A stretch of DNA of 64,000 bases from Vicinamibacterales bacterium (GTDB lineage: Bacteria > Acidobacteriota > Vicinamibacteria > Vicinamibacterales > UBA2999), in the NCBI GenBank assembly GCA_030680175.1, contig JAUXWO010000111.1, forward strand, positions 65,145-129,144, written 5' to 3'. The notes below the pieces were generated by a model. That model was not told the DNA's origin, ran no database searches, and saw only the letters and a list, made by a program, of their open reading frames with translations. Both the position numbers and the translations under genes were made by a program. Positions 35,550 to 36,849 of this stretch are shown in pieces (positions within the stretch are counted from its first letter, which is position 1; every line of letters starts with the position of its first letter).

Positions 35550-36106
35550 CCGCGCAGGCAAAGAAGCGGAAGGCGGCACCGCTGGCCGCCAGTGCGCCGC
35601 GCGTGGGGCTGACGCCCATCACGCGCGACGACGCGCCGCAGTTGTTCCGCTGGATCAACGACCGTGACCTCGTCCGCTTCAACTCGGCATACCAGCCGGT
35701 CCACGAGCCGACCCACATGCAGTGGCTGGAAGGGCTCACGCAGCGTACGGACCTCGTGGCCTTCGCCATCCGGATCCGTCGCACCGGGCGCCTGATCGGC
35801 GTGTGTCAGCTGACCGCGATCAGCCGTGTGCATCGTTCGGCGGAGTTGCAGATTCGCCTGGGTGACGCGGCGGCGCGCGGGCGTGGCTACGGCAGTGAGG
35901 CCGTGCGCCTGCTGCTGGACCACGCCTTCCACGATCTCAACCTGCATCGTGTCTCACTGCAGGTGTTCGACACCAATGCCGCCGCCATCCGCACCTACGA
36001 GCGCGCGGGCTTCCGGCATGAGGGCCGGCTGCGTGACGCCGCCTTCATCGGCGGTGAGTACGTGGACGTGCGGCTGATGGGCATCCTGCGTGAGGAGGCC
36101 GTCTGA
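35546..36106 (+). CDS. GNAT N-acetyltransferase (RimJ/RimL-like)
   Basis: Trimmed to MTAQAKKRK at 35546 (ATGA overlap). Motifs RGRGYGSEAVRLLLDHAF and IRTYERAGFRHEGRLR. Confidence 0.85.
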   Translation: MTAQAKKRKAAPLAASAPRVGLTPITRDDAPQLFRWINDRDLVRFNSAYQPVHEPTHMQWLEGLTQRTDLVAFAIRIRRTGRLIGVCQLTAISRVHRSAELQIRLGDAAARGRGYGSEAVRLLLDHAFHDLNLHRVSLQVFDTNAAAIRTYERAGFRHEGRLRDAAFIGGEYVDVRLMGILREEAV

Positions 36107-36849
36107 GCGAAGGACCGCGCCCGGCGGGTGGCCGGGTCGTAGCCATCCATCAGCCCAATGTCTTTCCCTGGCTGGGTTACTTCAACAAGATCGCCCGGTC
36201 GGACGTCTTCATCGTCCTGGACCATGTGCAGTTCCCGAAGTCCCGCCCTGGCAGCTGGACGAACCGCGTGCAGCTGGCGGTCAACGGCGCGCCCCACTGG
36301 GTGACGGTGCCCGTCAGTCGCGCCTTCGAGGGCGTGCGGCGGATCGACGAGATCCGCATCGACGACAGCACCCCCTGGCGGCGCAAGCTCCTCCAGCTCC
36401 TGCGCTCGAGTTATGGCCGCGCCGGCCACTTCCCCGAGGTCTTTCCCGTGGTTGAGTCCTGTGTGATGGACGGGGCGCCACTGCTGGCCGACTACAACCT
36501 CGGCGCGATCACCGCCATCGCCGCGCGGATCGGCGTGCCGACGGCGCACTGCGTGCGAAGCTCGACGCTGGGCGTCGAGGGTGCGAAGACGGACCTGCTC
36601 GTCTCGCTCGTGCGGCGCGTCGGCGGCACCGCGTATCTGGCCGGTGGCGGGGCGGGCGGCTACCAGGACGACGGGTGCTTTCAGGCGGCGGGGATCGACG
36701 TGCAGTACCAGGACTACACGCCGGCGCCATACCCGCAGCGCGGCCGGGATACGTTCCTGCCCGGCCTCTCCGTGCTCGATGCGTTGTTTCACTGCGGATT
36801 CGCCGCGACCGGGCGGCTCGCGCGCGGCGTCGACGGAGGTGCAGGGTGA
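36103..36849 (+). CDS. WbqC-family protein, copy 1; apparent non-canonical CTG start
   Basis: The ORF track starts at GTG 36226. However, 41 upstream in-frame codons (…[31 protein letters not shown]) align with the N-terminus of WbqC copy 2 (TLGIMQPYFLPYLGYWQLLARVDAFVVYDN). Between the frame stop at 36091 and 36226, the only start-like codons are CTGs, at 36103 and 36172. Only CTG 36103, within CTGA, retains the conserved N-terminus. Confidence 0.65.
   Translation: [248 protein letters not shown]

Follow-up and report, generated by a model that had tools for sequence, protein, structure and literature searches.

A CTG codon within a stop-start overlap as the probable start of a WbqC gene in an acidobacterial genome

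The near-cognate start codon of infC is the classic case of IF3 autoregulation. Start codons of this kind, one base off AUG, include AUU/AUC at infC and CUG, AUU, AUC, and AUA in E. coli (bioRxiv 10.1101/063800), and retapamulin ribosome profiling in Salmonella has revealed four CUG-initiated N-terminal proteoforms (PMC11005335). Termination-reinitiation, for its part, has been described for neighboring genes on the same strand that overlap as ATGA or GTGA, with a Shine-Dalgarno (SD) motif inside the upstream gene (Huber et al. 2019, Nat Commun, PMC6728339; 2023 follow-up, PMC10666635). When these two papers and a 2025 review (PMC12548453) were searched for the terms CTG, CUG, and CTGA, none of them gave a hit. 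Here, we analyzed a 64,000-nucleotide (nt) stretch of DNA (hereafter the window) from Vicinamibacterales bacterium (GenBank assembly GCA_030680175.1, contig JAUXWO010000111.1, positions 65,145 to 129,144), in which the first of two WbqC genes, WbqC copy 1, probably starts at a CTG codon overlapping the TGA stop of an upstream GNAT acetyltransferase gene.

As in the described termination-reinitiation systems, the two genes are same-strand neighbors joined by an NTGA overlap, with an SD-like motif inside the upstream gene. However, the start within the WbqC overlap would be CTG, and coupling is what we infer here. The likeness to near-cognate starts lies in a codon one base off AUG, presumably read by the initiator tRNA and preceded by a strong SD; in contrast to infC, where the odd codon has a regulatory logic operating through IF3, the WbqC codon is embedded in a stop-start overlap and conserved in a clade. 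The Salmonella cases share with WbqC the use of CUG to start a bacterial protein, which was shown experimentally there, but the genes concerned also have canonical starts, whereas CTG appears from the sequence to be the sole start of WbqC. The WbqC CTGA would be a variant that combines 4-nt stop-start coupling with near-cognate initiation, a combination that we have not found described.

The GNAT/WbqC junction and the proposed CTG start

WbqC copy 1 passes the Pfam PF08889 gathering score (200.4 bits vs. a cutoff of 21.3), matching model positions 1 to 215 of 218 (for the coordinates of all features, see Table 1). In the WbqC frame, the sequence following the TGA at 36091 to 36093 reads GGA GGC CGT CTG, and the first canonical start, GTG 36226, is found 44 codons past this TGA. 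The start-free stretch in front of GTG 36226 is needed because this codon falls 25 positions into the WbqC domain, the Pfam model beginning at Gln 36151, and initiation there would cost these 25 model positions. Between the in-frame TGA and Arg 36133, CTG 36103 is the sole start-like codon in the window. It is a one-base variant of ATG at the conserved start position, and no canonical codon could replace it while keeping the conserved protein. The geometry of a 4-nt stop-start overlap is present, with two co-directional genes whose CTG and TGA share bases. It is the absence of ATG, GTG, or TTG from the overlap that departs from the usual coupled pair. The GNAT gene itself begins with an ATG that overlaps the end of the GT2 gene before it as ATGA.

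These positions agree with a first-pass annotation of the window, which had claimed the WbqC-frame TGA, the CTG within a CTGA overlap, and GTG 36226 as the first canonical start. Its figure of 41 codons for the startless stretch is also what we obtain when counting from CTG 36103 to GTG 36226. The alignment that it reported between this stretch and WbqC copy 2 (45560 to 46264), which has an ATG start, is seen from Ile 36145 onward. Its count of 20 canonical 4-nt overlaps in the window was reproduced by a separate gene finder (9 ATGA, 10 GTGA, and 1 TTGA).

We conclude that WbqC copy 1 most likely starts at CTG 36103. The joint claim, that it does so by initiation coupled to GNAT termination, also strikes us as likely, if somewhat less so, the coupling being suggested by the geometry. 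The CTG would be decoded as Met by the ordinary initiator tRNA. The ribosome ending the GNAT gene would probably be held by pairing between GAGGAGG and the anti-SD just upstream of the CTG, and either this held ribosome or a freshly recruited 30S subunit would restart at CTG 36103. The product would be a 248-residue WbqC in which a short disordered tail is followed by the conserved RVVAIHQPN strand, and the weak codon combined with the strong SD might set a low WbqC:GNAT ratio.

Table 1. Coordinates of the features discussed, as positions in the window
Feature	Position	Strand	Remarks
GTG, canonical in-frame alternative start of the WbmS-like gene	13110..13112	+	Used in public record P0123
GGGAGG, SD-like motif	13149..13154	+	6 nt before CTG 13161
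CTGA junction	13161..13164	+	CTG, candidate start of the WbmS-like gene; TGA, end of the GT4-methyltransferase fusion gene (10489-13164)
WbmS-like polysaccharide deacetylase gene, from CTG	13161..13898	+	Pfam PF22537, E 3.3e-65
GNAT acetyltransferase gene	35546..36106	+	Pfam Acetyltransf_3, E 1.8e-26; same GNAT-WbqC order in orthologous loci
TGA in the WbqC frame	36091..36093	+	Bars WbqC translation from beginning upstream of 36094
GAGGAGG, SD-like motif	36092..36098	+	GGAGG core ends 4 nt before CTG
CTGA overlap	36103..36106	+	CTG 36103-36105, proposed WbqC start; TGA 36104-36106, GNAT stop
WbqC copy 1 coding sequence, as proposed	36103..36849	+	248 codons plus stop; Pfam WbqC PF08889, E 4.5e-59
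Variable N-terminal tail, nine codons (SEGPRPAGG)	36106..36132	+	Residues 1-10 of low model confidence, predicted disordered
R-V-V-A-I-H codons, including the first beta-strand of the fold	36133..36150	+	From the predicted model, codon comparison, and family consensus
ATC, start in NCBI record P0002	36145..36147	+	Considered an unlikely start (see text)
GTG, first in-frame ATG/GTG/TTG	36226..36228	+	Inside the WbqC domain

Orthologous junctions, upstream residues, and the SD signal

Homologues were sought in a collection of 5.8 billion proteins, in which the closest proteins among the matches listed are metagenomic and 60 to 76% identical. The orthologue contigs have their genes arranged as in the window: FemAB-like, hexapeptide transferase, methyltransferase, GT2, GNAT, WbqC, LPG_synthase_TM. 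Comparison of orthologous GNAT-WbqC junctions, which the first-pass annotation had suggested as a check, revealed CTGA, GTGA, or TTGA overlaps at the same place. Five other metagenome assemblies (64 to 76% protein identity) have the same in-frame CTGA (L016, L026, L027, L028/L029, and L030), which together with the window makes six independent CTGA loci. L016 even shows a GGTGGCCGGGTCG string identical to that of the window. Elsewhere, the junction is GTGA in L017 (GTG AGC..., where the window has CTG AGC...), a 4-nt overlap with a Val-coded start (GTG) in the P0004 contig, and TTGA in L035. The GTG or TTG start of these orthologues precedes an AGC codon, which is also what comes after the CTG in the window. 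In L034, 12 nt separate the GNAT stop from an ATG.

In a maximum-likelihood tree, from which the G417 row (see below) was left out of account, the six CTGA loci form one clade (SH-like approximate likelihood ratio test, SH-aLRT, 92). Paths between the window and the other members measure up to ~1 substitution per site, and the GTGA and TTGA loci form a neighboring clade. The CTGA state therefore arose once and has been kept through long divergence. The CTG-start option of the first-pass annotation has thereby gained ground: the CTG stands where orthologues have GTG or TTG, the CTGA is kept across the six-locus clade, and three of its six members have no canonical alternative. Indeed, in the window, L026, and L027 there is no ATG, GTG, or TTG from the upstream in-frame stop to 37 to 41 codons past the junction. 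Near the domain start of these three loci, the only near-cognate codons are CTG (codon 0) and ATC (codon +14); L026 has an additional ATA 20 codons upstream. In L016, L028, and L030, a GTG occurs at one of the two Val codons preceding AIHQP (Val 12/13), and gene callers took it as the start.

Searches of genome collections were less productive. No true WbqC orthologue was found in a set of 40 related genomes (best identity, 41%), and a phylum-wide search of 400 genomes returned a single orthologue, at 58% identity, in G417. When metagenome and genome collections were searched with the single protein, the only hits were distant WbqC genes (21 to 53% identity), which are uninformative for the junction. 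The G417 locus (L033; contig C5, ~64120 to 64150) belongs to the same bacterial family; the CTGA formed with its GNAT stop is in frame, but an ATG follows six codons later (MSRRLVAIHQPN).

The residues lying between the CTG and the other candidate starts bear the marks of translated sequence. The Val codon before AIHQP reads GTA, GTG, GTC, GTT, GTG, and GTC across the six CTGA loci, and the Arg two codons before it is encoded by CGG, CGC, or AGG. Since they vary synonymously, the Arg and the Val are selected as amino acids. The RVV residues also agree with the family-wide N-terminal consensus. In an AlphaFold2 model of WbqC copy 1 (mean predicted local distance difference test score, pLDDT, of 91), residues 12 to 16 are predicted to form the first beta-strand, which is largely Arg-Val-Val. 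Over the first 30 codons of the domain, the variable sites within the CTGA clade are distributed 5/3/16 by codon position, a pattern that points to purifying selection on the WbqC gene in the clade. The nine codons of the tail are always in frame, the sole length difference within the clade being 3 nt. As shown by this comparison, translation must begin upstream of Arg 36133. As a separate observation, the GTA at 36139 to 36141 in the window is a very rare codon in the genome (0.09% of codons), and the equivalent position is GTG in L016 and in P0243, a relative that is at least 90% identical.

The CTG is preceded by an SD-like GAGGAGG, a motif common to five of the six CTGA loci, the sixth having GGAGG at 7 nt. 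The 3' tail of the host 16S rRNA carries the anti-SD CCTCC. Genome-wide, GGAGG is found 4 to 17 nt upstream of 15 to 17% of ATGA/GTGA junctions, compared with 2.4% of uncoupled TGA gene ends and 1.3% of random intragenic sites. It precedes both CTGA sites of interest in the window (36103 and 13161, for the latter see below). ARAGORN detected no special initiator tRNA whose anticodon is CAG, but a single ordinary initiator (CAU) and a single ordinary tRNA-Leu(CAG); therefore, CTG would be read by the ordinary fMet-tRNA with a first-base mismatch. A strong SD followed by a near-cognate start is likely already in use in this host at infC (contig C76, minus strand, ~7522 to 7600, locus L048), where GGAGG is followed after 6 nt by ATC. 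As no ATG, GTG, or TTG was found in the host infC before the IF3_N domain, this ATC is the likely start.

Alternative readings of the junction

In the NCBI record (P0002), WbqC copy 1 is translated from ATC 36145 as a protein of 234 residues (MHQPN...). Such a start would leave the entire Pfam model covered, would employ the near-cognate codon in use at the host infC, and falls on an Ile codon, ATC or ATT, that is found in all loci. We nevertheless consider it unlikely. According to the predicted model, it would drop three of the five residues of beta-strand 1, and with them the RVVA that is conserved via synonymous codons in the CTGA clade. There is no SD-like motif 4 to 12 nt upstream of it. 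Moreover, the Ile is internal and conserved in orthologues with clear upstream ATG starts, and the homologue N-termini read that reach it (68 of 68) all retain at least one residue upstream; the truncated calls P0022 and P0075 fall short of it. The GTG at Val 12/13, which is present in three of the six loci as well as in P0243 and is what gene callers use, might instead be the working start of the clade (L016, L028, and L030), lost from the window (GTA), L026 (GTC), and L027 (GTT), where WbqC would be silent or decaying. This is quite improbable, since GTA, GTG, GTC, and GTT all occur at this Val, as they would at an internal codon, and since the Arg and Val that precede it are conserved at the amino acid level. 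In addition, the genes of L026 and L027 are intact and conserved despite lacking the GTG, and the WbqC gene of the window has neither stops nor frameshifts.

The first-pass annotation had listed two further options, neither of which holds up. One was a -1 ribosomal frameshift fusing GNAT to WbqC, placed here in the last part of the GNAT gene. The WbqC frame is indeed -1 relative to GNAT and is open for 22 to 205 codons upstream of the junction in five relatives. In the window, however, the shift would be confined to the 10 nt at 36094 to 36103 (G GAG GCC GTC), which contain no X XXY YYZ slippery pattern, and the RNA fold of 36060 to 36160 is no more stable than that of shuffled sequence (z -0.76). 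The relatives have CGA where the window has TGA 36091 to 36093. For the GNAT protein this change is silent (CGC to CGT), and there is accordingly nothing to hold the WbqC frame open. Finally, none of the 120 homologues listed is of fusion length or has a second Pfam domain, in a search that admitted lengths of up to 434 residues. A frameshift is therefore very improbable. The other option was an error of assembly or sequencing, hiding either a true ATG or GTG at 36103 or one more G, with which GTG 36128 would be in frame. The source genome is a draft of 143 contigs, and a one-base insertion in the GGG run at 36134 to 36136 would have that effect on GTG 36128. Against this, the five other assemblies, from different samples, carry the same CTGA in the same frame, and two relatives that are at least 90% identical were likewise called only with downstream starts. 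Because divergent and independent assemblies share the CTGA, a sequencing error is excluded for practical purposes, and we give this option scarcely any credence.

A CTG start for WbqC copy 1, coupled to GNAT termination, has its own difficulties. The 4-nt spacing between SD and CTG is short, and GAGGAGG also encodes a Glu-Glu that is conserved in GNAT. Initiation at CUG in E. coli reaches no more than ~0.02 to 3% of that at AUG (Hecht et al., bioRxiv 10.1101/063800). In the whole genome, the base before uncoupled TGA stops is C in 57% of cases, G in 25%, A in 10%, and T in 8%, C being more frequent than predicted from codon usage at four-fold sites (33 to 45%). As C is the commonest base there, a conserved C before TGA is by itself weak evidence. 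The nine-codon tail shows no codon periodicity across the clade (8/6/9), and its translation rests on frame conservation plus the absence of alternative starts. Three of the six CTGA loci own a GTG at Val 12/13 that could be used as a start, and an in-frame CTGA can be coincidental and need not be a start, as the one in G417 shows.

Other CTGA junctions in the window, the host genome, and its family

The first-pass annotation had also drawn attention to a second in-frame CTGA, at the start of a WbmS-like gene. This site (13161 to 13164) is real and in frame, but it is less compelling than was implied because a canonical GTG, which went unmentioned, lies upstream in the same frame at 13110. The public record P0123 (262 residues; sources NCBI, NCBI nr, and Logan) starts at this GTG. 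Starting there would add 17 residues that are absent from all 19 orthologue N-termini read, and the GTG has no SD upstream and would create a 55-nt overlap with the upstream gene. When started at the CTG, the WbmS-like protein has 245 residues, in keeping with its three closest orthologues (243 to 246 residues) and the other 16 read (239 to 252 residues), whose N-termini begin with MSA..., MPS..., or MSG.... The window reads CTG AGC GCC... at 13161, where orthologue L032 has ATG AGC within an ATGA overlap and L031 has CTGATG. With a simple codon-usage gene finder, trained on the whole genome, the onset of the coding signal lands exactly on 13161. On balance, we lean toward a start of the WbmS-like gene at CTG 13161, probably used in the same way as that of WbqC.

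In-frame CTGA sites are common, with 136 in the genome, and for most of them an ATG or GTG is no more than a few codons distant. The window contains four (1177, 13161, 30724, and 36103). Two of these look like ordinary short-gap or 1-nt-overlap starts: the CTGA at 1177 has an ATG five codons on, at 1192, and that at 30724 is a CTGATG with the ATG at 30727. Nine of the 136 genomic sites lack a canonical start within 12 codons, and among these nine, GGAGG is found upstream only at the two sites in the window. One CTGA without a nearby canonical start (C25:75860) was set aside because, on inspection by eye, it resembled an ordinary case with a downstream Met start.

Screening the 136 in-frame CTGA junctions for the absence of a nearby canonical start uncovered a third case. 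On host contig C6, at position 19446 (locus L036 1501), an OsmC-like gene (ending ...TTFEVHA*) is followed by a gene for an HGSNAT_cat-type acyltransferase, the Pfam domain of which starts 9 residues past the CTG. We compared this junction in 32 genomes of the same bacterial family (relatives L037-L039, L046, L047, and L050-L074). It is CTGA in 22 genomes, which span six genera, and GTGA at the same position in three; in another three, the CTG is kept 8 to 11 nt before a shifted TAA stop. The remaining genomes have TTG (one), TAGATG (one), or other arrangements (two). The stretch from the CTG to the next canonical start contains a conserved [DE]-R-K, the Arg of which is encoded by CGC, CGG, CGA, or CGT. 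No canonical in-frame start exists within 45 codons upstream in 8 of the 25 CTG loci (the 22 CTGA loci and the three with a shifted stop). In others, a GTG occurs 18 codons upstream; it appears and disappears as a codon of the OsmC CSVWH motif changes synonymously. There are hints in these sequences that start-codon strength and SD strength compensate at this junction: GAGG is present 7 nt upstream in 20 of the 22 CTGA loci but in 0 of the 3 GTGA loci (~0.004 by Fisher's test, without phylogenetic correction). With the OsmC-like/acyltransferase junction as an independent case, CTG initiation in this lineage gains greatly in credibility.

More tentatively, CUG might be a regular, selectively maintained start at stop-start junctions in the acidobacterial family of the host. 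Reinitiation together with a strong SD would relax the choice of codon, and a weak codon would be balanced against the SD to fix low subunit or enzyme ratios. This is hinted at by the uneven distribution of GAGG between CTGA and GTGA loci and by the three genomes that keep the CTG despite a moved stop. A CTG kept by a clade at an overlap, plus a second gene across six genera, offers a natural test bed for the strictness of start-codon choice in termination-linked reinitiation, and for the question of whether enzyme ratios in operons are tuned through co-evolution of weak start codons with SD strength. There is also a practical side, as gene callers and public records mis-start or truncate such genes: NCBI uses ATC for WbqC, and Prodigal-type callers cut 12 to 52 residues from the relatives. 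A start at CTG 36103 would correct the public WbqC annotation.

A genome-wide scan for coding signal preceding any canonical start returned mostly noise, recovering WbqC and a few unverified candidates. On the minus strand of contig C25, an open reading frame that opens at strand coordinate 14208 encodes an Lnt-like protein (apolipoprotein N-acyltransferase) whose conserved first membrane helix precedes the first canonical start; a candidate CTG start lies 16 codons into this frame, outside any stop-start overlap. On the minus strand of contig C142, a strongly coding open reading frame of 121 codons opens at strand coordinate 28656, directly after an in-frame TAG, and has its first canonical start 55 codons in. 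It resembles the C-terminal part of SPFH/flotillin-type proteins and could be a split gene or a gene with an in-frame stop.

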